From the NCBI GenBank assembly GCA_020697715.1, contig JAEHCO010000007.1, positions 1 through 64,000 of the forward strand: a DNA stretch of 64,000 nucleotides, read 5' to 3'. Below the pieces are notes generated by a model, which was given only the letters and a program-made list of their open reading frames with translations, was not told where the DNA came from and made no database searches. Position 1 is the stretch's first letter. Every line of letters begins with the position of its first letter. Below, one piece after another: positions 21,379-37,738 of the stretch. Position numbers and translations under genes: made by a program. This DNA comes from Methanobacteriota archaeon (GTDB lineage: Archaea; Thermoplasmatota; Thermoplasmata; SG8-5; JAGLSY01).

Positions 21379-21669
21379 TCAACGCTTCTTCATCACCCTG
21401 ATGATATGATAGCCGAACTGCGTCCTCACCGGCCCGGATGTTTCCCCCTTTTCCAATGAAAACGCTGCTTCCTCGAAGGGCTTTGCCATCTTCCCTCTCT
21501 CAAACCAGCCCATGTCTCCTCCTCGCTTTTTGGAGGGGCACTTTGAATAGGCCTTTGCCAGTGCAGTGAAGTTCGCCCCCTCTTCAAGCTTCTCCAGTAT
21601 CATATTCGCATCCCTTATGGTGCTGACCAAGATATGGCGAGCTCTGACCTTCTTTATTTCTCTGGCCAT
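21379..21669 (-). CDS. ppiC: Parvulin-type peptidyl-prolyl isomerase (PpiC-like), copy 1
   Basis: RARHILV, S.CPS.KRGGDMGWF, MAKPFEEAAF, TQFGYHII; start at MAREIKK. Confidence 0.92.
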   Translation of the reverse strand: MAREIKKVRARHILVSTIRDANMILEKLEEGANFTALAKAYSKCPSKKRGGDMGWFERGKMAKPFEEAAFSLEKGETSGPVRTQFGYHIIRVMKKR

Positions 21670-21761
21670 TGTGAACCACAACTCCTTTTTCAAATATATA
21701 TTGGTTTCGAACCATAGAATATTTTCTGAATATAAATTGGTTATCAGCAAATATCAGGGTA

Positions 21762-22043
21762 TTAGCGCTTGTCCGTCACCATGATGATGTGGTAACCGAA
21801 CTGGGACTCCACTGGCTTGGATATCTCTCCGATCTCCATTGAAAAGGCTGCGTCCTCGAAGGCTTTCACCATTCTTCCCTTTCCAAAGAATCCAAGATCA
21901 CCGCCACCCTTGCCGGATGGGCATGTGGAGAACTTCTTCGCCATATTGGCAAAGTCCGATCCAGAGGCGAGCTTTCCACTGACCTTCTGCGCTTCCATTA
22001 TAGTTTTCACAAGAATATGACTGGCTTTGACTTCTGTTACCAT
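21762..22043 (-). CDS. ppiC: Parvulin-type peptidyl-prolyl isomerase (PpiC-like), copy 2
   Basis: KASHILV, STCPSGKGGGDLGFF, MVKAFEDAAF, SQFGYHII. Confidence 0.93.
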   Translation of the reverse strand: MVTEVKASHILVKTIMEAQKVSGKLASGSDFANMAKKFSTCPSGKGGGDLGFFGKGRMVKAFEDAAFSMEIGEISKPVESQFGYHIIMVTDKR

Positions 22044-22282: not shown

Positions 22283-23956
22283 TCATTTACCCTTTTGCAT
22301 CCTGGCCCAAGAATCCCTGAGGCCAACAGTTCTGTTGAATATGATATTTCCATCGGTCGAATCTGGATCCACGCAGAAGTATCCAGTTCTTTCGAATTGC
22401 ACAGTATCCCCATGCTCGAGGTCCTTAACGGCAGGCTCTACCTTACAGCCTGCCAGTGTCTTGAATGAATCGGGATTTATGAACTCCTTGTAATCATGAT
22501 CCTTTTCTCCCATGGGATTCTCGACAGTGAATAGCCTGTCATAAAGGCGTATCTCCGTGTCAATGGACTCGGTCGCTGATACCCAATGAATGGTGGCCTT
22601 CACCTTGCGGCCATCAGGAGCATTACCACCACGGCTATCCAGATCAACAGAGCAGTGCAGTTCGACCACATCGCCAGCATCATTTTTGATGATATCATTG
22701 CATGTCAGCAAGTACGCGTACCTTAGGCGTACTTCCCGGCCAGGTGCTAATCTGAAGAATTTCTTGACTGGCTCCTCCATGAAATCCGCGCGCTCGATGA
22801 ATATTTCGCGCGTGAAAGGAACCTGGCGGCTTCCCGCATCCGGGTCCTCAGGGTTGTTTATGGCATCCAGCATGTCGATCTCGCCCTCTGGGAAATTGTC
22901 GATAACTATCTTCAGTGGGTCAAGAACTCCCATGACTCGCGATGCTTTTTTATTCAGATCATCGCGAACACAAGCCTCCAGAAGCTCGAAGGCGATGATA
23001 TTGGCCTTCTTCGCAATACCTGCCCGATAGCAGAATTCTTTGACGGCCTCGGGGGTGTAGCCACGCCTCCGCATACCGCAAATAGTTGGCATTCGAGGAT
23101 CATCCCAGCCATTGACAAGCTCCTTGGTCACAAGCTCCTTGAGGAAACGCTTGCTCATTATCGTGTAAGAGACATTCATCCGGGCGAACTCGATCTGCTG
23201 AGGATGATAGATATCCAGCTCATCCAGGAACCAGTCGTAAAGCGGACGGTGATTCTCGAACTCAATGGAGCAAAGCGAGTGAGTTATTCCCTCGATAGAA
23301 TCCTCCAGGCCATGCGCCCAGTCATAAATCGGATAGATGCACCATTCGTCACCCGAATGCGGATGGGTCGCATGCAGTATCCTGTACATTGGCGGGTCGC
23401 GCATGTTCATGTTCGGATGCGTCATATCGATCTTCGCCCTCAGTGTCTTGGAGCCATCCGGAAACTCGCCTTTTTTCATCCTCTCGAAGAGATCCAGATT
23501 TTCCTCCACCGATCTTTCACGGTTCGGGCTGTTCTTTCCAGGAGTGTTATAATCACCCCTGTATTCCTTCATATCCTCCGCATTGAGGTCGCAAACATAT
23601 GCCTTGCCTTTCTTGATAAGATCAATGGCATAGTCATACATTTGCTGGAAATAATCCGATGAAAATAATAGGCGGTCCTCGAAATCCGCGCCCAGCCACT
23701 TCACATCCTCCACGATGGAATCAATGAATTCCTTTTCTTCCGCAATGGGATTAGTGTCATCGAATCTCAGATTGAATTTACCACCGTATTCATCCGCGAT
23801 ACCATAATTGACCCAGATGGCCTTCGCACTGCCTAAGTGCAGGTATCCATTTGGCTCTGGTGGAAATCGAGTATGCACTCGTCCATCGTATTTTCCGGTC
23901 TTGAGGTCCTCGTCTATGACCTGGCGTATGAAATCGCGTGATTGGCTTTCGTCCAT
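22283..23956 (-). CDS. glnS: Bacterial-type glutaminyl-tRNA synthetase
   Basis: TRFPPEPNGYLHLG, LRFDDTNP, WCIYPIYDWAH..EDSIEGITHSLC, QIEFAR, MSKR, GWDDPRMPT, and the GlnRS beta-barrel anticodon domain (FFRLAPGREVRLRYAY, KATIHWVS, QFERTGYF, FNRTVGLRD); SD AGGAG before ATG 23956. Confidence 0.93.
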   Translation of the reverse strand: MDESQSRDFIRQVIDEDLKTGKYDGRVHTRFPPEPNGYLHLGSAKAIWVNYGIADEYGGKFNLRFDDTNPIAEEKEFIDSIVEDVKWLGADFEDRLLFSSDYFQQMYDYAIDLIKKGKAYVCDLNAEDMKEYRGDYNTPGKNSPNRERSVEENLDLFERMKKGEFPDGSKTLRAKIDMTHPNMNMRDPPMYRILHATHPHSGDEWCIYPIYDWAHGLEDSIEGITHSLCSIEFENHRPLYDWFLDELDIYHPQQIEFARMNVSYTIMSKRFLKELVTKELVNGWDDPRMPTICGMRRRGYTPEAVKEFCYRAGIAKKANIIAFELLEACVRDDLNKKASRVMGVLDPLKIVIDNFPEGEIDMLDAINNPEDPDAGSRQVPFTREIFIERADFMEEPVKKFFRLAPGREVRLRYAYLLTCNDIIKNDAGDVVELHCSVDLDSRGGNAPDGRKVKATIHWVSATESIDTEIRLYDRLFTVENPMGEKDHDYKEFINPDSFKTLAGCKVEPAVKDLEHGDTVQFERTGYFCVDPDSTDGNIIFNRTVGLRDSWARMQKGK

Positions 23957-24070
23957 GTTCAATCTCCTTGTCATTGGCTATTTGGGATATGGTAAATAAT
24001 GTTTTGGAATGAGAGTGTTAATATCTGATCTTCTATCTAGAATCCCACATAATAACGTTTAAAAAGAAAG

Positions 24071-24144
24071 AGCCATTGGAGAGATTTGAACTCCCGACCT
24101 GCTGATTACAAATCAGCCGCTCAACCGGGCTAAGCTACAATGGC
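24071..24144 (-). tRNA. tRNA-Thr(UGU)
   Basis: GCCATTG acceptor, GCTGA-TTTGTAA-TCAGC anticodon arm, GTTCAAATC T-loop; TTTATATA box ~30 nt upstream. Confidence 0.96.
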
Positions 24145-24210
24145 GTATGATATACCCCTGGAAGTTAAAATTATATAAATATCTATTGAATGATTACTTT
24201 AGCAAATATG

Positions 24211-24218
24211 TTATATAT
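24211..24218 (+). promoter_or_regulatory. TATA box of the leader-tRNA-Gln transcript
   Basis: TTATATAT preceded by a purine-rich BRE-like stretch; predicts a start near 24234-24241. Confidence 0.6.
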
Positions 24219-24233
24219 CAATTGATATTTCCA

Positions 24234-24330
24234 GTGCTGTTAAGACATGCTTAACGCCTCGAGGTGTGAACACGGAACTAAAGTTCCTTAGATGGCACCA
24301 CGAGGCTGTTGGGCATAGAAAAAGCCCAAC
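24234..24330 (+). ncRNA. Structured ~95-nt 5' leader of pre-tRNA-Gln with an anti-tRNA hairpin
   Basis: Perfect 19-bp inverted repeat 24296-24314 / 24324-24342; further stems GTGCTGT/ATGGCAC, ACGCC/GGTGT, GGAAC/GTTCC. Confidence 0.6.
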
Positions 24331-24402
24331 AGCCTCGTGGTGTAGCGGTTATCATGGGAGACTCTGGATCTCTCGACTCCAGTTCAAATCTGGACGAGGC
24401 TA
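24331..24402 (+). tRNA. tRNA-Gln(CUG), archaeal type (A1-U72, A73)
   Basis: AGCCTCG/CGAGGCT acceptor, GGAGA-CTCTGGA-TCTCT anticodon arm, GTTCAAATC T-loop, followed by a T-run. Confidence 0.96.
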
Positions 24403-24997
24403 CTTTTTATTTCTCTTCACAAGATTGATCTTCCTTAGCATGGTGAATGCCCGTATAACACCATAACCCGCCAAAATTCCTAAAAATAACAAAAAAAGTT
24501 GTGCAGAATAGCCCTTTATATACTTTTCCCCAGTCCATACTTAAAGGTTTTTGTCAAAAAAATAATCCTCACCAAAAGGTCTATATATCCCCCCTCACAA
24601 TATCTAAAATGGGATTGTGGCAAGGTGTTCGTTCCCTTGTTTTAGAATGCCTTGCTTCGCCTCCTGCTTTTTTCAAAATTCATTAGATAGCTTTGCTATT
24701 GGATCTTTTTACTTGATTTTCGCTTAATTTATTTAAAAATGTTATTATGATATTCCATACAATATCTTATAAGAAGAAAATAAGGTGAAGCGAAAGGAAA
24801 AAGTAAACTTTATGGGGGAAGAGAGTCTAACAAAATGCCCCTCCGCTTCATCACCAGTATATTATGAATAGGATATAAGGTTTACGATATTAAGCATCAC
24901 GATTGATAGGCAATGCAATACAATTTCATACACTACAAGATTGCCAGAATGGTAATTGAACCCATCCTTTAATAGAGATCATATAAAAAGGTAAGAT

Positions 24998-25065: not shown

Positions 25066-28000
25066 TCATTCTTCATCGTCGCTGATTTTCAATTCCTCCG
25101 CACAATCATTGCAGACGAAATCACCTTCTTCATCAGTTGATCCGGCCTTTCCAGACACTCCACAGTACGTACACTCGTTCTCTTTAGCAGGCTCAGACTT
25201 GTCCTTATCTTTGCCTCCCTTCCTCATGCTGATGACCGTGTTGATGATGAGCAGGATTATGACGATTATCAAGAGGAGCATTATGGTGTTCTGATTTCCC
25301 TGCTGCTCGCTTGATTCCGCGCCCACTTTGTCGATCACACTGGCTTCTGCAGCTTCCAAATTCTCTGCGAGTGTGAAGAGATCAGCACGGATCTCATCCA
25401 GCTTGGCAAGGTCTGCGAGAGTGTCATCGATATCTGCCAGGGTTCCATTGATATTATCCTGGAAGTCCATGATATCCTGGTTCAGGGCCTGGAGATAAAG
25501 AAGAGTTCCAATGTCATGCGATGACAGATTAGTGGATATCCAATTCAATCTCTGTGTCAGCTCGGCCAGTGTCAATGAATTAAGATCACGGATGGTGTCA
25601 TCGAGTAGCGCCAGTTCATCGGTCATGTTCTCATCGTGTGACATGAGCATGCCTTTCAGATCGGCCAATGAATTGTTCAGGTCATTGTAGAAGCCATCCA
25701 TCGCATTCTCAAGTTCCGCTATCCTGCTGTCCAGATATGCTGTGTCCGCATTAATGGCCGCTAGTATGTCACTCAATGCGGATGCAAGACCATCCTGCAT
25801 CGTGATGTTCAGGCCATCTATTTTCATATCGAGGCCATCCAATAGAATGGTAAGGTCAGCTGTCTGATTCATTATCTGACTGTACAAAGCGAAGTCCACC
25901 CTGGCCAGTTCGTCCATGAAGGTCATGGTCAGGTCATCAATGAGCATGGTCAGGTTTCCCTCGACCTGCCACAGGTCCGAATATAGATTGGCAAGTGTCA
26001 TGTTCAGATAGTCTATATCTGCCTGAATATCTGCCGCACTCATATTCAGCCAGGCAAGATCGATCTGTACCTGAAGTAGAGTGGCATTGACAAAGTCCAC
26101 ATCAGACTGCATAAGGTCCAAAGTGGTATTGAAGTCGGTCCAATATGAGGAGATCTGGCTGTATGTCATCATGTTCTCCATCGATAGATTGGTCATGCCC
26201 GAATCCATCGCGAATCTTAGACTGGCTATGTTCGCATCCATTGCTGATATATTGAGATCCTGGCTTGACAGCATTCCACTTATGTATGTTTCTGTGGCCG
26301 CCATGTCAGTCCAGGTCGTATTGAACCAGGCATTGATGCTCGCATAGTTGCTGGCTGTTGTCATATTGTACTGTGCCCAGAACACTGTGAATTCCGTTCT
26401 TAGATCATTCAGAGATGACTGGAACGCCAGCTGTGTCATATTGGCGAAGTTCAGATCGTTCTGGATCTGTGCCATAGTAGAGTTCCAGGATGTCCAGTAT
26501 AGGCTCTGCAATGTGTGCGTGTCATTATGCTCGTTCCACATTGCCATGAAGTAAGCCTGCATCGCGGCATCCATGCTGGTCAGATTGGCATCCAACTGTC
26601 CGAGATTTCCGGAAAGATCGCTCAGAAGCAGGGTGATATTCGCCTCGAAGCCACTCATCTGGCTCCTGATGCTGGCAGCCTCGGTCTGAATGGTCAAGTT
26701 CAGACCGTCCATCGTGGTGTTCAGATAGTTTTGATATGCCTGGAAATACAGATGCCAGTTATCCCATGTTGTATTGAGATCATCCCTGTGAGCTAACAGT
26801 TGTGCTAGAATGATATTGGCCGTCGCGTCCAGAGATGCAAGGTCGGTCTGTACCTGAAGCAATGTGGCATTCAGGAAGTTTACATCTGCCTGTAACGCGG
26901 CAGATGTCACATTCCAATCTGCCCAGTACAGACCGTGTAGTGTTTGTGTATCATTGTGCTCATCCCACATTGCCTGGAAATAGGCCTGCATGATGGCATC
27001 CATATTGGTCACATTCACATCCAACTGCCCAAGGTCTGCATCCAGATCATTCAGGAGAGCGGTCATATTGCCCTCGAAATCATTCATCTGGGTGTATACC
27101 ATCTCGATCTGGTCCTGAAGTGTTATGTTCAATCCATCCGTAGTTGTATTGAAGTACGACCAGTATGAATCGAACTGCGCATCCCATATTGTCCATGTTG
27201 CATTGAAATCAGCCCAGTATGCCAGAATAAGCGCATTGTTCGCTGTCACCGTGGCATTGATGTCATCGATCACCTGTATCCAGCCAACGACCTCGAAGCT
27301 GGTTATTCCAATATAATTGAAGCCAGCTATTTGAGCATTCACTGCAACGAAGTACGTGCCTTCTGCGGGTATGCTGTCGCTGTAAGTATAGAGACCGAAT
27401 GTCGCATCCAGTATGTTCATGGATGCATTGTCCACGATCTTCATCATGCTGTCGTCGAAGATGGTCACGGTAACATTGGTGAAAGCGTCTGGCACCAATG
27501 CCTGGCCGTTCTGAGTCACTGAGGCCATGATATCATATTCAACACCATTCGCATCGTACTGAAGACCGGTCGTGACATCCACATTCGTTGGTGGGGTTGT
27601 GGATGATAATGTCACAGTCACTTCCTTGGACATATCGATCGTTGCTACGAGAGAGCCCATCATGATACCATTGTTGGCAATAGCCAAGTGAGGTGTGTGA
27701 TCTGTCTGGCCTGCTTGATCCTCTACATATTCCGTCACGACATTCCATCTGGCATATCCATTTGCATCAGCGTTCACATTGTAAAGTGGTGTGCCGAACA
27801 TATCAACTATCTCAACCTGAGCTCCAGCAACTGGCTGCATCATCTCATCACGCACGTACACGTTCATGAACCACTGTATCTCAAGTGTGGAGAGTGCATC
27901 CATATAGTTGATGGATGCCTTGTTGAAGGTCGAGTTCAGTGATGTGATATGGCTGTCCTGATCCAATGCGATCTCAAAGCCATTGCCAGAGAACGTGAAG

Positions 28001-31000
28001 TTCTCAATGGTGAAGGTACTGTCAACACCAAAAACACCGGTCGGAGAGTTGGTGATGGTATTCAGAGACATTGGAGTGGTGTAATCAGAACCCCTTGCAC
28101 CCAATCCAAAAGCCGTAAGTGCATTCATTGTGTTGCCAGTTATGAGATTGTCACCAGAGTCCCAAGAATAGATACCTATGGGGCTGTTGGTTAAAATGTT
28201 CGATATTACAGTGTTGCCGAATGTTCCATCAGCCAATCTTATACCTTCGGAGGTGGCGCCGGTAACTGTATTGCCAGATACGATATTTCCAGTGGATGTA
28301 TCAGTGACTATGATCCCTATCATTGAAGAGCTCATCAAATTGTTTGTCACATAGTTCGAATCAGAATCCCTTAGATTGACATCATTCTGGGCATTGCTAT
28401 TGAATGTTGAACCATTGATCACATTGTAATTTGACGATTGGAACCTTATGCCTTGCCAAAGGTTCGAGGAGATCGTGGAGCCCTCGATGGTGTTGGAATC
28501 TGAGTTAAAGCCAAACACTCCTCCATTGGCACTGTTCGTGATCAAAGTATTGACAATGGTATTGGAATCCGCATCACGCAGATACAATCCATATCCCTCA
28601 TCACTGTTGGATATTGTCGAGTCGATTATGAAGTTGTTATCAGACCTGATGTACAATCCATGAGCATTGCCAGTGAATGTCGCATTATAGATGAACACGC
28701 CGTTTGCGTATACTTCCACACCTTCATTCGACCAATCCCAGCCAGCACCCGTGATGGTACTGTTCTCCACTCTGAAGTTCGCACCACTCATGATATTCAT
28801 CAGGTAGCCGAAGGTCGTGTTAGACATCACAGTGCTTCCTTCGATGATATGGAATGTACCGCTTGAGTTGACCTGGATAAGATACTGGCCATTTGCAGCA
28901 TTGTTCATCCTTAGCTGAGTCTCATCGAGTATCAATGAACCACCGCTCTCGACCCAAACATCACCTGTCTGATTCCAGAAGGATGGATCCACTGTGAGTG
29001 TTCCACCATTCCTTATGACCAGCTGGCCAGTAAGGTTGAAGGACGAGTCTCTTATGAGAATGTCAACACCATCGATCACCACGTCCTCGAGGTACGTCGT
29101 GTCGTCAAGTTGTAATTCATCGCCATCTGTAGCATTCGCAATAGCACTCGTTATTGTCGGATACCAAAGTCCCTGGTTCCAGTTCAATACATTTTGGTCA
29201 GGGTGCCAGTTGGTCCATCCAAATGGAACTGTATGAGGCCATAAGTCCTGAGAATCTCCATCGATCACATATGGGTCATCGACGAAGCCATCCCAGTTGT
29301 CATCCGGGGTTTCCCAGTTATCCCAATAGTTACCGCCCAGGTCATATCCGAGGTTCCAGGTCTGGGTATATGCATCGAGAGCCTGAACTCCATTGTTTAT
29401 GAAATTATTGTGATAAATGAAGTTGTTATATCCATTTTCAATATTCAGACCAATACCAGAATTTGAATCGATCGTGTTGTTGGTAATCATGTTATTTTCA
29501 TATGGAGGAGGAGGAATTGCCCAGATAAGATCAGGGTATGATAGATCCTCATATATTGCCCAAACCGTTGCAAAGTCCCAGCCAGTGAATGTAGCTTCTT
29601 GTTTCATTTCAGCTGTTGTTTTACCAATTCCACCATAGCTGGTCAACAAACCAGATGAGTCCATGTCCCAGAAACAGTTGAGCGTTGTCAAACCCGCTTT
29701 TCCTGAGAAACCTCCAACATTGATAGTGCCAGAAACTGTGCCAGTACTGTAACTATTTGTTACAGTAGCTGCACTATTTCCACCGATGAATCCTCCTGAA
29801 TTAGCTCCACCAGAAATGACATCTACGTTTGAGTAACAATCAATTATTATATCATTCCAGGCCCATCCAACTAATCCTCCAGCATCAGCCCCAGTACTAG
29901 TTACCGTTCCTTTGCTATAAGAATTACTTATTGATTGGATCGAGGTGTAAGTCTGTCCAACAAGCCCTCCAATATTGCCATCACCACTAACAATAGAATC
30001 AGAGTAACAGCCAGTTATAGTTCCTGTACCATCATTTGAGCCAACTATTCCTCCAACTGTGCCGCTTACAGCATCAATTGTTACTAAAGCATGGCAATCT
30101 GTAATAGTGCCTATGTTGTATGCAGTTATGCCTCCAGCTGTTCCCTGTGTGCCAGAAATTGTCCCGGTAACATAAGAGTTGTCTATTGCCCCCTCATTGT
30201 GTCCGCTTATTCCTCCTGCATAATTTGTACCAGAGACCAATATATTTTCCAGTCCAATATTGCTTACTACACCAGATGGTCCAATGAATCCCATGAAACT
30301 CCTATCCCATTGATTCTTGTAACCCACATATAGGTCTGAAATAACAAGTCCCTGACCATCTAATGTTCCAGTGAATGGTGAAGCACTATTTCCAATCGGC
30401 TCAAATCCTTCTCCACCATTCCATCCCGTTGTTGCACTTGCATCAAAACTATTCATCACGATATAATTGGCTCCAAGATCAAGAGCTATATCCTGCAATT
30501 CATTTACATTTGTTATCTGGTATGGATCACCTGGAGAACCATCTCCAAGGCCTGAAAAGGCAGGTATTGGTGCGTCCCATTGTGGATAAGGATATGATGT
30601 TCCTTCATCAATTGCCCATGTGTTCACGAAATCCCAGCCGACGTATGTGGCCTGAGACATCATCTCTGCTGTTGTCTTTCCGTTTATATCTGTTCCAGAG
30701 CCGCCAGCAGATCCTATGCCAGTTGCCTGGCCAGAAGCATCGACATCCCAGAAGCATGGATCAATAATTCCACTGTCAGAGCCTGCAAAACCACCGACAT
30801 TTGTAACACCAGTTACAATGCCAGTTGAGAAGCTGTCAACTATCAATCCAAATATGGAGCCAACATCATTAATTCCAACAAAGCCTCCGACATTGTTATT
30901 ACCAATAACATCACCCTTTGCATAGGAATTGTGGATCTCACCTCGATTGTCTCCAACGAATCCGCCATAGTTGCTATTATCACCATTTTTAGTTACTGAA

Positions 31001-34000
31001 CCTGTGGCGTAACATTCGAAGATCTCTCCTCTGCTATGACCGATGAAGCCACCGATTGTGGCAAAACCGACCACAGAACCTGTAGCATAACAATTATCAA
31101 TAATAGGTCCAGCTGCCCCGATAGTACCGATGAAGCCACCCACATTTGATGAATCTACTCCACCTGTTACATCACAGGTGCTTGAGCTATTGGCAATGTT
31201 GTTGTTATTGTAATTATCACCGATGAAGCCACCAATATAAGAACCATAATCAACACCATTCACAGATCCAGTTGTGTGTGAGTCTTCGACATCACCAGAG
31301 TTTTCTCCGATAAGACCACCAGTTTGTGATTGGCCAGTAACAATACCATCAAAATCACAAGATGTGACGGTTCCAGAGTTCGAGCCCATTAAACCGCCTA
31401 CCTTATCATCACCAGTAATTACTGAGCTAGCGATACTGACATTGGATATTTTCGAATTAAAGGCCCACCCAAACAATCCTATATAATCTTCAGTTGGTCT
31501 ATTAACAACCAGATTGCTTATTGTGAATCCCTTTCCGTCCAATGTCCCCTGGAATGGTGAGGCACTTGCGCCGATCGGAACAAAGCCGCCTCCAAGATTC
31601 CATCCTGAAGTAGCTGTGGCATCGATATCGTTCATCAGAATATAGTGCATGGACTTTTCAATGTTCATCTCCTGAAGTAGGTCTACTGTTGATACCTGGT
31701 ATGGGTCGGCTGGAGTTCCTGAACCAGGCCCACTAAACAGAGCCTTTGGCTCATTTACTGGCAGAGCTAAGAATATGCTCTCATCATTGTCAACTGATAA
31801 ACCGGCTGGTAGATCATTAGTAATGATAATTCCATCACCACCATTTCCATAGATCACATTATTGGAAATAGAATTGTTATTTGAACTCAGATAAATTCCT
31901 TCAGCTGCATTTCCATTGATATTGTTACCAGAGATCGTGTTATTATTAGATCCAATATATATTCCCATATTACCATTATCTACAATGTCATTTCCGATTA
32001 CCTGGGTAAACATACCCGCTCCGGATTCCAGGGATATTCCTGCATTGACATTATCAGATATATCACTATCAAGTATCATGGTATTTGAGCTGCCATCCAA
32101 TGTTAATCCATTATAATTGTCAATAAGCTCTGCTTGATTGAAATAAGTATCATCTGCATAGACCACAAGACCAGGGTTGGCTGCATCCCATCCAGCATCC
32201 TGGATGGTTGAGTTCTCAACGTTGAAGGTTGCGCCATCATTGACGATGAAGTTATAGCCAAAGTTCGGGTCCACTGCCTTGATGGTCGAGCCATTTGGAT
32301 TTACATCATTATACAGGTTCATGACCTCGTAGTCTGTGAGTGGTCTGGAATATATCCTGGCATCATCCATTCTTCCATCGAAGTAATCATTGGCCCAGTT
32401 GGACTTGCCTATGAAGGATGATGTCCTGGCAACATTCGCAGGTACTGAAATGGTCCCTGTCTTTATTGGGTTGCCATTCACATATATGGTCACATCACCA
32501 GTAGCACTCATAGTAGCAGCAAAATGGTTCCAGCCAGATATTCCATTCAAAGGATCGGTATCTGTTACCACCGCGCCTCCAAACGCACCGCCAATATAGA
32601 CCTGGAAGGCAAGTTCATCATTCACGCCCCACCTGGCAAAGACGATGTTGTCATCATTCTGTCCCTGGCCAAGATCAAAGAACCTTGCCCAATCCTTCAC
32701 ACTGTCTATCTCTGCCCATATGGACATGGTCAATCCATTGGATACATCATAGTCGACAGTGCCAAGGTCAACATAATCATCGATGCCATCGAAGTCAAGT
32801 GCTCCATCCATTGTCCATGTTGGATCATTAGCATCTGCCCCAACGGCCGAGCCAAGTGTACCGTCATTGTCAAAGATCTTAGATGAATCATATGCGGTAT
32901 CTCCAGTGCCTTCATCGAAGGTCCACTGGCCGATCAGGTCTGGTGATTCCTGTATGTATATCTCACCAGTGGCATTCACTGTGATGCCGAACTCACCATC
33001 AAAGGTATTGTCGATCTCCCATGTGGAGGAGTTCAGCCATACACGACCATCTATCCAGACATTCTCCGATATGAGGGTGTTCGGGCTGTTCTTGATGATC
33101 AGATCACCATTCACGATGACTGTTCCCACTTCAAGTGAGATGTCATCAAGCGTTAGCAAGCTACCAGCATTTATTGTCAGGCTGCCATCTATTTCAAAGT
33201 TTGAACCGACGAACTCAATGTTCTTATCCACAACGATATTCTCGCCGTATATCCTGTCTTCTATGAGCAATCTGTCACCTGGACTGGCCGCGGCGATGGC
33301 ATCGGTTATGATGACATGGTCGGTCATTGCATCCAGATTATGAACTGGAGTTGGGTTCAGCCAGCCATTTTCAACACCATATGGCCAGGTATCCTCTGAT
33401 ACTCCGCCAGTTATTGGGTAATTGACATCTATGAACCAGTCTGGAAGGCCTGTTGTCTGGGGCCTTATTATATCATTGTAGTGATCTGGAACCACTAGGT
33501 CGCTCCAGTAGTTCCCTCCTACTGGATATGGTGCGTTCCATGTATTTGCGTCCAGCTCCCATGCCTGGTTGACATTGTCGATGAAATTGTTATGATAGAT
33601 GAGATTGTCATTTCCTTCCTCGATGTACATTCCATAGCCAGTGTTATCCATGATCACATTGTCTGTGAACATGTTATTGGTGTGAGGAACAAGATCGATA
33701 TTGTCTTGGATCTCTTCTATGGATATTGCTCTGTCCCATATCTTGACCTCATCGATGGAGCCCACGAAGCCCCAAGCGTTAAGGTAGGATAGTCCAATCC
33801 TGGATACACCTGGCTGTATATTAGGTAACATTGCAACAGATGGACTAGCGGATACACCGTCAACGTATATCTCGGCTGTAGCTCCATTGAACACGACGCC
33901 AACATAATGCCATACACCATCATTCACCGAGATCGTGGATACAGGTCCGACCTGGTTCGTCACATCGAAGTGTAGCAGACCAGTTGTATCATGGTAGAAG

Positions 34001-37000
34001 TGCAGACCCTCAAAGAATCCTGGGTCTGAACCATAAGCGATGATGGTTGGCCTCGCTCCTACGCTTGTGGTGTTTATCCAGGCAAATATCGAGAATGGAC
34101 CGGTTCCTGTGTGAGGTGTCTGGCTCAGTGTTACGTAATCGCCTATGAAGTCCAGGCCACTGTTCACTGCTCCGGTTCCCCAGGTCGGGTCTATGCCGAC
34201 CTCGACAGTACCGTCCAGGCCAAGGAAGCCATTATTTCCGGTCGCGCTTGAATCCGCGACAGTCTGCCCAGTATTCTCATCAAAGTTCCAGTAGCCAACA
34301 GGGTCATCGGATGGTGTGACATAATTGAGATCAAGATCCCCATTGACGAATATTCCATTATCATTGCCAATTATCTGATTATCGCTGATGTCATTGACAT
34401 TGCCGCTGTGGGTTACGAGATCGTAAAGGTACAGACCATCACCGTTGTTATTTAGTATCATGTTATTTGTAATATCTATATTTACAGAATAGTTCACTGC
34501 TATACCATCATATAGACTGTTACCGACAGTGTTGTTCCTAATTGGTGTGTCCTTTGACTTGACCAGCCATATTCCGAAGCCACCACTGTTCCATACCTCA
34601 TTGTCCTCAACTGTGTTATTGTTGTGTATGAGCCATTCCGCATCCCCAAGGTTATTGAGTATCGAGATACCGCTCCAGCTGCTCCCAGTCACATTGTTGC
34701 CGATAATCGCGGCGTCCTCAACATTGGACACTCCGGGCAGGAAACAGATACCATACTGGCGGCTGTCTGTCACTGTATTGTAAAGGACCTGATGGTCATC
34801 TCCCTGGGCGAAATAGATACCGTAAGTATTGTTGGTGATCGTATTGTATTGAACTACGTGACCATTTGTATTGCCACCGCCAATTCCGATACCGCCATTA
34901 TCATAGACATCATTGTACTGGTAAGTGCCATAGCTGGCATAGCTGATGTAGGCACCATAGATATCATTAGTATGAATGCTGTTATTCTCTATTGTATTGT
35001 AGCTACAGCCATAGTCATTACCAATACCGAAATAATAGTTATCATAGACCGTATTATTGGCTATTGTATTGTAATCTGAATATCTTTCGATATGGATACC
35101 ACCATCGAAGCTTCCCATGCCCACACCATTGTTATAGACGGTGTTTCTCATTACAGTATTGTAATCTGTTATTCCAGTGAAAGAATACAGATTTATACCA
35201 TCCTCATCATTGTTGAAGACCGTATTGTCTGAAACTGTATTATATCCTGCCTGGTAGAGTAAAATTCCGTTCTCCAATTGTGAGTCCGAGACAGTGTTAT
35301 TATCAATGGTGTTCCATGATCCAATAGATACCTGAATTCCATTATATTCACAGAAAGATATCGTATTGTTCAATATCATATTGGAGCTTGACTGAATCCT
35401 TATTCCATCATAATCGCAGGCTGTTATTACATTGCCCTCGATGGTGTTTGAGCTACCGCCAGATATTCTGATACCATGCTGTGAACCATACATGATATTA
35501 TCATAAACATGAACATTTGTCACGGTGTCCAGATTGAGACCAGCATCTGCATTTAGGTTGGTTCCACCATTGGTGACATTGAAGCCAGTTATATTAACCC
35601 AGTTAGACTGAATATCGACAGCTTTGCCAGTTCCACTGCCATCAATTATCGTATTGTCCCTGCTAGCTCCCTGGATTGTCAGTATTTTATTGACAATGAT
35701 ATTCTCCGTATATGTACCAGGATCCACCATTATGGTATGGCCGTCCAGTGTGTCTGCATCATCTATTGCTGCCTGAATGGTCATGAATGTCTCGGTCGTA
35801 TCGATATTCTCTACAGGGTCTGGGATATATGGCCAGCTGCTTGGGGTCATCCATGGGAAATCATCCTGCCCAGTTGTCATCAATATCACAGGAGGAGCGA
35901 TGATCGTCTGGATACCCGTATATGGTGTGTCGCCGATACCATTCACATCTCCATCTGAACCTGCATAATCATCCCAGAAGTTTCCACCATAAGGCAGGCC
36001 ATTGTCCCATAAAGGACTGCCCTGGTAGAAGGCATGGGTTCCGGCATTTAGAATGAAATTATTATTGTAAATAATGGCTCCATTGTTCGGGCCGTTCACG
36101 GTGACACCATTCCCCATATTGTTCGATATGGTATTGTTCACTATCTCGGCATTGTCCATACCAGAACCTATCTGGATGCCAGATACCAAGGTTCCAGTTA
36201 TCGTGAAGCCTGTTATCTCCACATTCAAAGCCGCAATATCAAATCCAATATTGTGAGTGAGGCCTCCATCCAGAGTGGTGGTGTCCTTGTCCTCACCGAT
36301 CAAGGTCAGCTCCTTGTTGATGTTGACAGATTCAACATATGTTCCTTCCTCGACAAAGATAGTATGGCCGTCCAGTGTTTCAGGAGCATCGATAGCCTCT
36401 TGAATGGACTTGTAAGCGAGGTCAGTGTTCAGATTGCTTACAGGTGTGACCCAGCCATTGGATTCCATCCAGGGATATGCATCCGCACCCCTGTCAACTA
36501 TAGCATATGCTGTGTCCCCAAAGCCATCTGAATCACCATCAACACCAACATAATCGTCCCAATAATTTCCTCCTACGGGGAGGGCTTGAGACCATATTTG
36601 GGTTCCCGAACCTTCGGTGTAAGCATTAACTGCATTGCCAATGAAATTATTATTGTATATTTGAGTCTGAGGTCCTTGTGAATTTGAAATATAGTATAAA
36701 TGGATACCATATTGGCTGGCACCAGATATCGTATTTCCGATTATCCGGTTGTCATGCGATGCAGATAGGTAAATACCCAGTGTACCACCAGTGATCGTAT
36801 TTGACTCGATAATATTTCCAATACTAGGATATCTCTGAATGTACATACCAAATGTATTGGATGTGAATGTATTGTCCTTTATTGAGGTGTAGGATGATTC
36901 CCAATCCCATATGCCTCTTGCATTGCCAGAGATTGTATTGTTATTGATGTCATTGTGATCGGCTCCCACGTATAAGGCGACAGCAGATGAATAACTAGAT

Positions 37001-37497
37001 GTGATCGTATTTCCTGTGATCACATTGTAGGTAGCTCCCTGCAGCAATATACCTTGGCCATTGTCATGAATGATATTGTTCTCAATCAGGCAGTAATCGA
37101 AATTGTTAATGTAAATTCCACCATTGAGATTATATTGGTATGAATTCTGTATTCCGATATTTTTAACAGTCACACCGTTTGATTGAATGTTCACGGTATG
37201 TGTGACCTGGCCACCATTTATGATAGTGGTAGCTGGATCCACTCCTTGGAGTGTGATCGCCTTATTGATCACCACATTCTCAAAGTATGTTCCAGAATTG
37301 ACCTCGATGGTATGGCCTGCCAAGGTCTCAGGGGCATTAATGGCCTCCTGGATGGTGACATAGCCAAGACCTGAATCGAGATTCATCACTGGAAATGGGG
37401 CATTGCCTTCATCTCCAACATCCATAGCTATAACACTCACTGGCATTATCATCATTACTGCTAACACAATTCCTAATATTTGCTGAACTAACTTCAT
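25066..37497 (-). CDS. Giant (~4140 aa) surface glycoprotein: NosD/CASH beta-helices, two LamG domains, two GLUG blocks, long helical stalk, TM, cytoplasmic CxxC..CxxC motif
   Basis: Signal peptide; TIQEAI/GGNYW-bounded beta-helix blocks; YWNFDE..GSIDEVKIWDRA and WTFDE..GRMDDARIYSR LamG; GGFIG GLUG; ~600-aa heptad-rich region; TM IMLLLIIVIILLII; CTYC..CNDC. SD GGAGAGGT favours ATG 37497. Confidence 0.88.
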   Translation of the reverse strand: MKLVQQILGIVLAVMMIMPVSVIAMDVGDEGNAPFPVMNLDSGLGYVTIQEAINAPETLAGHTIEVNSGTYFENVVINKAITLQGVDPATTIINGGQVTHTVNIQSNGVTVKNIGIQNSYQYNLNGGIYINNFDYCLIENNIIHDNGQGILLQGATYNVITGNTITSSYSSAVALYVGADHNDINNNTISGNARGIWDWESSYTSIKDNTFTSNTFGMYIQRYPSIGNIIESNTITGGTLGIYLSASHDNRIIGNTISGASQYGIHLYYISNSQGPQTQIYNNNFIGNAVNAYTEGSGTQIWSQALPVGGNYWDDYVGVDGDSDGFGDTAYAIVDRGADAYPWMESNGWVTPVSNLNTDLAYKSIQEAIDAPETLDGHTIFVEEGTYVESVNINKELTLIGEDKDTTTLDGGLTHNIGFDIAALNVEITGFTITGTLVSGIQIGSGMDNAEIVNNTISNNMGNGVTVNGPNNGAIIYNNNFILNAGTHAFYQGSPLWDNGLPYGGNFWDDYAGSDGDVNGIGDTPYTGIQTIIAPPVILMTTGQDDFPWMTPSSWPYIPDPVENIDTTETFMTIQAAIDDADTLDGHTIMVDPGTYTENIIVNKILTIQGASRDNTIIDGSGTGKAVDIQSNWVNITGFNVTNGGTNLNADAGLNLDTVTNVHVYDNIMYGSQHGIRISGGSSNTIEGNVITACDYDGIRIQSSSNMILNNTISFCEYNGIQVSIGSWNTIDNNTVSDSQLENGILLYQAGYNTVSDNTVFNNDEDGINLYSFTGITDYNTVMRNTVYNNGVGMGSFDGGIHIERYSDYNTIANNTVYDNYYFGIGNDYGCSYNTIENNSIHTNDIYGAYISYASYGTYQYNDVYDNGGIGIGGGNTNGHVVQYNTITNNTYGIYFAQGDDHQVLYNTVTDSRQYGICFLPGVSNVEDAAIIGNNVTGSSWSGISILNNLGDAEWLIHNNNTVEDNEVWNSGGFGIWLVKSKDTPIRNNTVGNSLYDGIAVNYSVNIDITNNMILNNNGDGLYLYDLVTHSGNVNDISDNQIIGNDNGIFVNGDLDLNYVTPSDDPVGYWNFDENTGQTVADSSATGNNGFLGLDGTVEVGIDPTWGTGAVNSGLDFIGDYVTLSQTPHTGTGPFSIFAWINTTSVGARPTIIAYGSDPGFFEGLHFYHDTTGLLHFDVTNQVGPVSTISVNDGVWHYVGVVFNGATAEIYVDGVSASPSVAMLPNIQPGVSRIGLSYLNAWGFVGSIDEVKIWDRAISIEEIQDNIDLVPHTNNMFTDNVIMDNTGYGMYIEEGNDNLIYHNNFIDNVNQAWELDANTWNAPYPVGGNYWSDLVVPDHYNDIIRPQTTGLPDWFIDVNYPITGGVSEDTWPYGVENGWLNPTPVHNLDAMTDHVIITDAIAAASPGDRLLIEDRIYGENIVVDKNIEFVGSNFEIDGSLTINAGSLLTLDDISLEVGTVIVNGDLIIKNSPNTLISENVWIDGRVWLNSSTWEIDNTFDGEFGITVNATGEIYIQESPDLIGQWTFDEGTGDTAYDSSKIFDNDGTLGSAVGADANDPTWTMDGALDFDGIDDYVDLGTVDYDVSNGLTMSIWAEIDSVKDWARFFDLGQGQNDDNIVFARWGVNDELAFQVYIGGAFGGAVVTDTDPLNGISGWNHFAATMSATGDVTIYVNGNPIKTGTISVPANVARTSSFIGKSNWANDYFDGRMDDARIYSRPLTDYEVMNLYNDVNPNGSTIKAVDPNFGYNFIVNDGATFNVENSTIQDAGWDAANPGLVVYADDTYFNQAELIDNYNGLTLDGSSNTMILDSDISDNVNAGISLESGAGMFTQVIGNDIVDNGNMGIYIGSNNNTISGNNINGNAAEGIYLSSNNNSISNNVIYGNGGDGIIITNDLPAGLSVDNDESIFLALPVNEPKALFSGPGSGTPADPYQVSTVDLLQEMNIEKSMHYILMNDIDATATSGWNLGGGFVPIGASASPFQGTLDGKGFTISNLVVNRPTEDYIGLFGWAFNSKISNVSIASSVITGDDKVGGLMGSNSGTVTSCDFDGIVTGQSQTGGLIGENSGDVEDSHTTGSVNGVDYGSYIGGFIGDNYNNNNIANSSSTCDVTGGVDSSNVGGFIGTIGAAGPIIDNCYATGSVVGFATIGGFIGHSRGEIFECYATGSVTKNGDNSNYGGFVGDNRGEIHNSYAKGDVIGNNNVGGFVGINDVGSIFGLIVDSFSTGIVTGVTNVGGFAGSDSGIIDPCFWDVDASGQATGIGSAGGSGTDINGKTTAEMMSQATYVGWDFVNTWAIDEGTSYPYPQWDAPIPAFSGLGDGSPGDPYQITNVNELQDIALDLGANYIVMNSFDASATTGWNGGEGFEPIGNSASPFTGTLDGQGLVISDLYVGYKNQWDRSFMGFIGPSGVVSNIGLENILVSGTNYAGGISGHNEGAIDNSYVTGTISGTQGTAGGITAYNIGTITDCHALVTIDAVSGTVGGIVGSNDGTGTITGCYSDSIVSGDGNIGGLVGQTYTSIQSISNSYSKGTVTSTGADAGGLVGWAWNDIIIDCYSNVDVISGGANSGGFIGGNSAATVTNSYSTGTVSGTINVGGFSGKAGLTTLNCFWDMDSSGLLTSYGGIGKTTAEMKQEATFTGWDFATVWAIYEDLSYPDLIWAIPPPPYENNMITNNTIDSNSGIGLNIENGYNNFIYHNNFINNGVQALDAYTQTWNLGYDLGGNYWDNWETPDDNWDGFVDDPYVIDGDSQDLWPHTVPFGWTNWHPDQNVLNWNQGLWYPTITSAIANATDGDELQLDDTTYLEDVVIDGVDILIRDSSFNLTGQLVIRNGGTLTVDPSFWNQTGDVWVESGGSLILDETQLRMNNAANGQYLIQVNSSGTFHIIEGSTVMSNTTFGYLMNIMSGANFRVENSTITGAGWDWSNEGVEVYANGVFIYNATFTGNAHGLYIRSDNNFIIDSTISNSDEGYGLYLRDADSNTIVNTLITNSANGGVFGFNSDSNTIEGSTISSNLWQGIRFQSSNYNVINGSTFNSNAQNDVNLRDSDSNYVTNNLMSSSMIGIIVTDTSTGNIVSGNTVTGATSEGIRLADGTFGNTVISNILTNSPIGIYSWDSGDNLITGNTMNALTAFGLGARGSDYTTPMSLNTITNSPTGVFGVDSTFTIENFTFSGNGFEIALDQDSHITSLNSTFNKASINYMDALSTLEIQWFMNVYVRDEMMQPVAGAQVEIVDMFGTPLYNVNADANGYARWNVVTEYVEDQAGQTDHTPHLAIANNGIMMGSLVATIDMSKEVTVTLSSTTPPTNVDVTTGLQYDANGVEYDIMASVTQNGQALVPDAFTNVTVTIFDDSMMKIVDNASMNILDATFGLYTYSDSIPAEGTYFVAVNAQIAGFNYIGITSFEVVGWIQVIDDINATVTANNALILAYWADFNATWTIWDAQFDSYWSYFNTTTDGLNITLQDQIEMVYTQMNDFEGNMTALLNDLDADLGQLDVNVTNMDAIMQAYFQAMWDEHNDTQTLHGLYWADWNVTSAALQADVNFLNATLLQVQTDLASLDATANIILAQLLAHRDDLNTTWDNWHLYFQAYQNYLNTTMDGLNLTIQTEAASIRSQMSGFEANITLLLSDLSGNLGQLDANLTSMDAAMQAYFMAMWNEHNDTHTLQSLYWTSWNSTMAQIQNDLNFANMTQLAFQSSLNDLRTEFTVFWAQYNMTTASNYASINAWFNTTWTDMAATETYISGMLSSQDLNISAMDANIASLRFAMDSGMTNLSMENMMTYSQISSYWTDFNTTLDLMQSDVDFVNATLLQVQIDLAWLNMSAADIQADIDYLNMTLANLYSDLWQVEGNLTMLIDDLTMTFMDELARVDFALYSQIMNQTADLTILLDGLDMKIDGLNITMQDGLASALSDILAAINADTAYLDSRIAELENAMDGFYNDLNNSLADLKGMLMSHDENMTDELALLDDTIRDLNSLTLAELTQRLNWISTNLSSHDIGTLLYLQALNQDIMDFQDNINGTLADIDDTLADLAKLDEIRADLFTLAENLEAAEASVIDKVGAESSEQQGNQNTIMLLLIIVIILLIINTVISMRKGGKDKDKSEPAKENECTYCGVSGKAGSTDEEGDFVCNDCAEELKISDDEE

Positions 37498-37738
37498 ATT
37501 TGACCTCTCCAATGTGTGCACGCAAATTCATATATCGCGTACCTTAACCTTGTTACACCTCCCGAATAACATATTATTAATATAGTTATGCACTAATAAA
37601 AATAAATATGAAGACATCTATTTAAATGGACAGATAAATATTAACAATAATTAATGAATGCAGCATGATATGGAAAAGTTATAATGATTTCTTAATAACA
37701 TTACATAATATCACTCACTACTTAAAAAAATAGAAAAG

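Follow-up and report, generated by a model that had tools for sequence, protein, structure and literature searches.

The locus examined here raises the question of whether the leader of an archaeal tRNA gene can act as a natural switch of tRNA maturation, because a first-pass annotation of a 64,000-nt stretch of Thermoplasmata DNA (hereafter the window) had described a hairpin that would bury the 5' acceptor strand of tRNA-Gln(CUG). The repeat behind this proposal proved exact: by sequence comparison and repeat search, the two arms of a 19-nt inverted repeat (24296-24314 / 24324-24342) are 100% complementary with 9 nt between them, and, with the tRNA placed by ARAGORN and Rfam, the right arm consists of 7 leader nt plus tRNA-Gln nt 1-12 and crosses the RNase P site. 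Only 11 perfect hairpins with an arm of at least 14 and a loop of at most 30 occur in the 2,120,904-bp genome, and the tRNA-Gln leader hairpin is the longest of them. The fold of 24225-24410 had a z of -6.54, with 0 of 200 shuffles folding equally well, and its minimum free energy (MFE) structure holds the leader hairpin (20 bp), not the acceptor stem. As a separate observation, the second-longest perfect hairpin of the genome (C28:143985-144042, 16 bp, 26-nt loop) has the 3' end of tRNA-Thr(GGU) as one arm and a T-run inside its loop.

The tRNA-Gln(CUG) gene is complete and intron-less, does not encode CCA and is followed directly on its 3' side by a T5 run at 24404-24408 (Table 1); the tRNA covariance model (RF00005) matched the gene at 57.2 bits and did not match the leader rod. 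Sequence alignment showed the TATA-like box to be conserved in two congeners (G003 and G001), and its homolog in G001 is found 28 nt 5' of the tRNA +1; on the basis of this conservation and this distance, the leader would start near 24241 and be ~90 nt long. The annotation had linked the leader to its neighbor glnS, and the gene for a bacterial-type glutaminyl-tRNA synthetase (GlnRS) does adjoin the locus, but it lies on the opposite strand behind the divergent tRNA-Thr(UGU) and would therefore be carried on a transcript separate from the tRNA-Gln leader. The nearest relatives of this GlnRS (68-69% identity) were Thermoplasmatota/Thermoplasmata MAGs and the next (57-65% identity) were bacterial (Planctomycetota, Chloroflexota and others); the comparison suggests that this archaeon acquired its bacterial-type enzyme horizontally. 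The host genome (G000; 34 contigs, 45% G+C) encodes an archaeal RNase P RNA (135 bits), and Rfam placed the 5' end of a 23S rRNA gene at positions 1-157 of the window on the minus strand. Three further observations were made in the neighborhood: a 13-nt inverted repeat (92%; 24177-24189 / 24218-24230) brackets the divergent TATA boxes of tRNA-Thr and tRNA-Gln and may be a regulator binding site; a 4151-aa open reading frame (25066-37521, minus strand) lies directly downstream of the tRNA-Gln locus; and two adjoining genes on the minus strand (21379-21750 and 21762-22043) encode parvulin-type peptidyl-prolyl isomerases.

Table 1. Features of the tRNA-Gln(CUG) locus (window positions) and the genomic loci that hold the conserved element found 3' of six other tRNA genes.
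Feature	Position	Strand	Basis or description
glnS, bacterial-type glutaminyl-tRNA synthetase	22283-23974	-	TIGR00440, 700.6 bits (cut-off 425.8)
tRNA-Thr(UGU), divergent	24070-24144	-	ARAGORN; Rfam, 65.8 bits
TATA box of tRNA-Thr(UGU)	24172-24179	-	TTTATATA on minus strand
TATA-like box, inferred tRNA-Gln promoter	24211-24218	+	TTATATAT
Segment a	24256-24267	+	direct copy of tRNA-Gln nt 2-13, 11/12 identical, A replaces U8
Segment X	24268-24295	+	internal loop plus 5-bp hairpin (24274-24278 / 24283-24287)
Segment a'	24296-24307	+	reverse complement of tRNA nt 1-12
Spacer	24308-24330	+	7-bp hairpin (24308-24314 / 24324-24330), loop 24315-24323, flush with tRNA +1
tRNA-Gln(CUG)	24331-24402	+	ARAGORN (24331-24402/3); Rfam RF00005, 57.2 bits (gathering score 29)
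3' element	C11:391760-392040		
3' element	C11:413140-413420		
3' element	C22:264090-264350		
3' element	C22:278735-279000		
3' element	C22:303580-303840		
3' element	C28:52230-52520		

The leader follows a compact plan of a, the X hairpin, a', a short spacer and the tRNA. Segment a, detected as a direct match of 11/13 at -76, sits where G001 has the tRNA 5' end relative to the promoter. Segment a' has two alternative partners, a, with which it gives a rod of 11 pairs interrupted by an A.A mismatch (24262/24300), and the 5' strand of the tRNA; the spacer hairpin and a' together make up the 19-bp arm pair, and the spacer folds as a separate hairpin once the acceptor stem is enforced. The 7 nt 5' of a match the 7 nt 5' of the tRNA at 5/7 positions, so that a stretch of ~20 nt across the tRNA boundary exists in three copies, direct (24256-24267), inverted (24296-24314, comprising a' and its extension) and in place (24324-24343). 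The annotation had instead drawn a multi-stem domain upstream of the hairpin, closed by a stem GTGCTGT/ATGGCAC (24234-24240 / 24292-24298). This stem can form, with 5 Watson-Crick and 2 G.U pairs, but none of the MFE structures computed contains it; its 5' arm falls at or upstream of the inferred start, the aligned bases in G003 pair at 2/7 positions, which leaves it without conservation, and in place of the multi-stem domain there is a simple rod of the direct tRNA 5' copy paired with the inverted one.

The claim of two mutually exclusive precursor folds was borne out by the computed structures, the rod and cloverleaf on one side and the sequestering hairpin on the other. With nearest-neighbor energies, the rod, spacer hairpin and cloverleaf together came to -61.7 to -62.3 kcal/mol, and the 20-bp hairpin with a paired to the 3' acceptor strand came to -74.3 to -74.9 kcal/mol; on paper, the leader hairpin thus out-competes the acceptor stem by 12.6 kcal/mol, as had been predicted. 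When the suggested check of co-transcriptional folding was carried out by growing the chain, the rod formed first and the swap took place on emergence of nt 24337-24343. The swap fold beat the native fold by 12.6, 5.0, 3.1, 6.0 and 2.6 kcal/mol in five of six leaders built on the same plan, with tRNA-Cys tied, and it was likewise favored in G003. That nearest-neighbor energies favor the sequestering fold argues that the two exclusive folds are real, and both may be populated in vivo; a gap of 12.6 kcal/mol, if real, would leave the tRNA mostly trapped and poorly expressed.

Rfam gave 38 tRNA matches in the genome, and the recurrence of such copies was assessed with the top 35, one having too little flank, by seeking the first 13 nt of each tRNA at an identity of at least 10/13 within 160 nt upstream, with non-cognate leader/tRNA pairs as the control. 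Inverted 5' copies were present upstream of 6/35 tRNAs versus 26/1158 non-cognate pairs, and direct copies gave the same counts (6/35 versus 26/1158). The plan of a, a', a 20-24-nt A-rich spacer and the tRNA was shared by all three tRNA-Gln genes (on contigs C32, C28 and C11) and by tRNA-Asp, -Cys and -Lys, and its presence at the last three indicates that it has no special tie to glutamine or glnS. The C32 and C28 tRNA-Gln leaders have an X core in common, with a compensatory change from A-U to G-C in its hairpin, and the C11 leader shares only the start of this core, its hairpin being different and longer; the tRNA-Cys leader contains a symmetric 3x3 internal loop. E-value scans of the five other leaders against Rfam returned, besides tRNAs, only sub-threshold matches of the microRNA hairpin type. 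A second type of tRNA-Gln, with an A1.A72 mispair and a 3' end in ...GGGGCAA, was also noted (G000 C28:172877-172947; L114, L126 and L128), and in G002 the A1.A72-type tRNA-Gln bears a CUG anticodon and has no leader element.

Copies were not confined to the 5' side. When the last 13 nt of each tRNA were sought within 160 nt downstream, direct copies were found at 11/34 tRNAs (control, 24/1090) and inverted copies at 3/34 (control, 8/1090), and these copies sit past T5-T7 runs. In G006, which belongs to another family of the same order, 20/36 tRNAs had a direct and 16/36 an inverted 3' copy downstream, with controls at 2-6%. Because the copies occur at both gene ends, past terminators and thus in disregard of transcript boundaries, they point to an origin by duplication at the DNA level. 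Beyond the T-run, six of the tRNA genes with such copies in the host genome (L178-L183; Table 1) have in common a conserved element of ~95-105 nt, which comprises, in order, a T-loop complement, a T-loop-like hairpin, a variable co-varying hairpin, a repeat of the 3' end of the tRNA concerned and a second T-run. This element is restricted to tRNA neighborhoods, as evidenced by the fact that 6/6 genome-wide motif matches adjoin tRNAs, and Rfam E-value scans of the six elements gave no family match. In the G006 loci (L184-L219), we also observed that more than half of the tRNA genes bear 3' end copies, that many leaders and trailers have CCUCGG-flanked hairpin motifs in common, and that some flanks are tandem arrays of units.

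Among close relatives the element was partly retained: the entire leader was kept in G003, of the same genus, at 83% identity, but G001 has the promoter and the tRNA without the leader element. The inverted repeat itself persists in G003, where the inner 11-13 pairs are kept and the loop-closing C-G has become U-A, a compensatory change; farther out, CGAG has become CTCG and the tRNA carries G9A, which together disrupt the outer 6-8 pairs. The layout of tRNA-Thr, promoter and tRNA-Gln in G001 is that of the host genome, and its tRNA-Gln(CUG) carries a 34-nt intron at 37/38 (L024, C353, 166-280). The C28-type tRNA-Gln gene of G002 also has no element, and its absence from these two genes shows it to be dispensable. 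Orthologous leaders of other tRNAs were present in G003, G001 and G002, with variable inner parts; both tRNA-Gln(UUG) leaders of G001 are bare a:a' hairpins that lack X, and among the congeners only G001 has an element at tRNA-Ala(CGC), whose a' reproduces the deletion junction of a and must therefore have been templated by a, not by the tRNA 3' strand.

At greater distance, G006 had direct 5' copies upstream of 13/36 tRNAs (31/1220 controls) and inverted 5' copies upstream of 5/36 (controls, 2-6%), and its tRNA-Asp leader holds two tandem units. Complementarity between leader and tRNA 5' end, as had been seen at tRNA-Gln(CUG), recurs at this gene: among 23 genomes, a perfect leader/tRNA-boundary repeat reached at least 8 nt in 8, with four further families included, and at least 10 nt in 4, where the reversed-sequence control had a maximum of 7 nt. 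In G037 and G032 this repeat again extends through the last 4-6 leader bases. In the complete genome G033, from a distant family of the class, every category of copy was found at 0-1 of the 24 tRNAs sampled (of 37; the first 20 regions fetched). The tRNA-end copies are lineage-specific. A near-complete but damaged second tRNA-Gln lies ~160-225 nt 5' of the intact tRNA-Gln(CUG) in two other genomes (L007 in G013 and L014 in G007), together with a separate fragment of a tRNA-Gln 3' end; the same duplication and decay may be caught here at an early stage.

Where the tRNA changes, the copies tend to change with it. A C6 to U change of the tRNA in G002 is matched by C to U in a and G to A in a', position 9 has changed together in the tRNA, a and a' of the C28-type gene of G003, and C5 to U in the tRNA-Asp of G006 is mirrored in both a and a'; a U8.C mismatch of the tRNA-Asp leader is retained in G000, G002, G003 and G006. 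Such co-variation could come from a DNA-level process in which "correction" is templated, with no selection on the RNA. As a neutral yardstick we used the 4-fold sites of GlnRS, of which 113/153 (74%) are identical between G000 and G003, the protein being 97% identical. By hand count between the same two genomes, the X of the tRNA-Gln(CUG) leader is identical at 26/28 positions, the X stems of the C28 leader at 23/23, and the tRNA-Asp leader at ~97% over ~190 nt, and only 50-70% identity was counted for the stretch from the start to a and for several spacers. Overall, the X segments are 93-98% identical and are, by this comparison, conserved above the 4-fold-site rate. Spacer hairpins lie flush with the tRNA +1 in four lineages.

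The reading that we favor, tentatively and at a probability of roughly 0.45, is that the leader is a mimic of the tRNA end, born of duplication, that acts in cis as a gate or delay on precursor folding and RNase P processing. A segment of ~20 nt over the tRNA-Gln 5' boundary would have been duplicated and inverted at the DNA level, an origin that is well supported. In the "on" state, a would pair with a' once both had been made, the resulting 12-position rod mimicking the acceptor stem; the spacer hairpin would form alone, the tRNA would fold and RNase P would cut. In the "off" state, a' and the spacer would zip onto tRNA nt 1-12, so that the RNase P site would be buried in a continuous helix and a would be left to take the 3' acceptor strand as its partner. 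The element would be retained through this effect in cis, with 5' maturation throttled or delayed kinetically or via a protein or helicase, not by a metabolite-binding aptamer. The element is one of a lineage-wide class of tRNA-end mimic hairpins found beside many tRNA genes in this Thermoplasmata order. Regulatory use of the leader is our inference; counted in favor of a use of the RNA are the conservation of X, the regular a' spacing, the retained mismatch, the tracking of tRNA changes, the flush spacer hairpins and the presence of an RNA-based RNase P, and counted against it are the loss in congeners and the 3' copies past terminators. A much broader version, in which tRNA-end-copy hairpins and bistable precursors form a natural order-wide system that gates RNase P and tRNase Z maturation, with the balance set by a trans factor or growth conditions, seems unlikely.

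The main rival of the cis-gate reading is a functionless DNA footprint, an explanation that we regard as somewhat unlikely: where tRNA genes are heavily transcribed, template switching or fold-back synthesis would yield duplication-inversion-duplication at both gene ends, the arms would be kept alike by quasi-palindrome "correction", and the copy in the leader would be tolerated, either because UUG isoacceptors read CAG or because the tertiary fold of the tRNA wins in vivo. Such a process fits the inclusion of non-tRNA leader bases in the direct, inverted and in-place copies of the ~20-nt segment, the mirror-image structures past terminators at tRNA 3' ends, and the gain and loss among congeners (tRNA-Gln(CUG) of G001 without an element, tRNA-Ala(CGC) with one in G001 only); it also fits the tRNA-Ala a' of G001, made from a with its deletion junction copied, and a 4-nt inversion in G003 that resembles a strand-switching product, strand switching being a source of short inversions. 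It accounts poorly for X, which has no tRNA template and yet is 93-98% identical where neutral sites are 74% identical, for the regular distance of a' from the tRNA +1 (20-28 nt), for the U8.C mismatch in the Asp a' that was kept across two families when "correction" should have removed it, and for conserved motifs common to the flanks of different tRNAs in one genome. Alternatively, and quite improbably, the rods themselves could be the product, mini-helices that mimic an acceptor stem and are freed by RNase P and tRNase Z or, at 3' flanks, made as separate transcripts. They would serve in trans as decoys for the enzymes that recognize tRNA ends, or to recruit them, and the 19-bp hairpin would be incidental to mimicry. 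The first 6-7 pairs of the rods do reproduce those of the cognate acceptor stem; position 8 is mismatched and 2-5 further pairs follow, which makes ~12 positions in all, as long as an acceptor stem stacked on a T-stem, the 12-bp ruler. The identity of the rods to the cognate tRNA is maintained, and the 3' rods finish with the tRNA's own 3' end and then their own T-run. Set against this, E-value scans of leaders and 3' elements found no Rfam family, the inner part varies greatly, and several rods lack nt 1 or have it mispaired at 1:72.

The annotation had read the leader as an aptamer plus expression platform, and a riboswitch-like sensor, in which an aptamer in 24234-24298 binds glutamine, 2-oxoglutarate or GlnRS and sets the balance of folds, is in our estimation highly improbable. 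Mutually exclusive pairings, one of the criteria for a riboswitch, are present in the computed folds, X is conserved and common to tRNA-Gln leaders of the genus, and GlnRS is encoded nearby; the reading fails on its one testable defining feature, a conserved aptamer, since the closing stem is not conserved and probably not fully transcribed and X is absent from both G001 tRNA-Gln(UUG) leaders. The same architecture moreover occurs with a different X at Asp, Cys and Lys, and glnS is on a separate, divergent transcript. At the gathering score or E <= 5, no riboswitch in Rfam matched the leader, which hit only sub-threshold microRNA and sRNA hairpin models, and at the gathering score the whole 64-kb window matched only tRNAs and the 23S end. 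A degenerate 13-mer of X matched in 211 of 401 genomes of the class, but a reversed-pattern control also matched often, so that the pattern is too loose; with this pattern, 0 of 30 matches fetched from other genera (of more than 300 in all) lay upstream of tRNA-Gln. An att duplication left by site-specific integration of a mobile element into the tRNA gene is equally improbable. Partial tRNA copies beside tRNA genes are the classic mark of integrases, and one account (PMC9897764) describes them as direct repeats flanking elements of 9-23 kb. Direct repeats of tRNA ends do lie on both sides of genes here and, as in that account, short copies of tRNA ends stand beside an intact gene; in contrast to what it describes, they are 13-34 nt long, lie tens of bases away and are paired with an inverted copy. 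In two genomes, between a third and a half of the tRNA genes have copies of this kind. The 63 nt between a and the tRNA are gene-free, with no recombinase (the sole ORF of at least 60 aa that overlaps the stretch from a to the tRNA, 24266-24466, runs through the tRNA gene); integration, moreover, gives no target-specific inverted copy, the repeat lengths vary (13-34 nt), and the conserved 3' element adjoins only tRNAs in its 6/6 motif matches.

Several other identities were considered and rejected. A bulge-helix-bulge (BHB) site has two 3-nt bulges on opposite strands and a 4-bp helix between them; the arms here form 19/19 perfect pairs with no bulge, and the 3x3 loop of tRNA-Cys is no BHB either. 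C/D box sRNAs carry a C box (RUGAUGA) and a D box (CUGA) with guides of ~12 nt between, and the leaders have no C/D boxes at the right spacing and no snoRNA or sRNA match in Rfam. The sequences likewise misfit the consensus of a K-turn, an H/ACA RNA and a hammerhead-like core, with no model match. A hairpin-plus-U-run terminator was discarded because the plus-strand hairpin leads into the tRNA body and the sole T5 run (24404-24408) comes after the tRNA, a true 5' exon in a followed by an intron because a has A at position 8 and nt 1 is missing or mispaired, and a promoter within the spacer because its A/T-rich stretch is just 6-20 nt from +1. In G006, leader-trailer processing stems were not convincing, with 12 and 0 long-range pairs in two MFE folds.

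The arrangement nevertheless invites comparison with known systems. In the trp leader attenuator, the alternative pairings are 1:2, 2:3 and 3:4; here the segments a, a', tRNA 5' strand and tRNA 3' strand could likewise pair as 1:2 plus 3:4 or as 2:3 (plus 1:4), but, unlike the attenuator, the tRNA-Gln leader has no terminator and no translation, and its output would be RNA folding or processing. External guide sequences for RNase P present a strand of 12-13 nt complementary to their target and form an acceptor-like helix, as a' would do with its 12-13 complementary nt; the guide-like strand in the tRNA-Gln leader differs in that it lies in cis, with a 9-23-nt loop between it and the cleavage site, and, because the helix continues across the RNase P site, it should block and not direct cleavage. 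Archaeal BHB stems and non-canonical tRNA introns provide extra precursor helices with mature-end sequences, and the leader similarly adds to an archaeal precursor a helix that uses a mature-end sequence, but this helix pairs perfectly along its 19 bp, and the tRNA is uninterrupted from the outset. A further parallel is the designed RNase P riboswitch (Ender et al., Nucleic Acids Res 2021, PMC7897497), in which sequestration of the pre-tRNA leader controls RNase P. Both arrangements would expose or sequester the region of the RNase P site through 5' leader structure and thereby set the rate of 5' processing; the designed system is synthetic, with a theophylline aptamer and a single-stranded leader that is sequestered, whereas the tRNA-Gln leader has no evident aptamer, its competitor is a copy-derived complement of tRNA nt 1-12, and a serves as an anti-competitor.

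Leader structure has been used by design to control tRNA 5' maturation; word searches of open-access full text, which are no proof of absence, found no natural leader control of tRNA 5' maturation, and hairpins that mimic tRNA ends beside archaeal tRNA genes were not described in anything that these searches returned. Should the rods influence how the precursor folds, the locus would offer a natural model of tRNA maturation gated in cis that could be tested directly, and such action would account for the long structured flanks at a third to half of the tRNA genes; were the gated order-wide system true, it would add a layer of control over tRNA supply that has no described natural counterpart. 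If the structures are footprints only, they would reveal unusually active duplication-inversion at tRNA gene ends in one lineage, absent from another family, and would inform on replication-transcription conflicts and on the beginnings of tRNA introns and split genes. Either way, pseudo-5' and pseudo-3' tRNA ends are to be expected beside the real genes when members of this clade are annotated.
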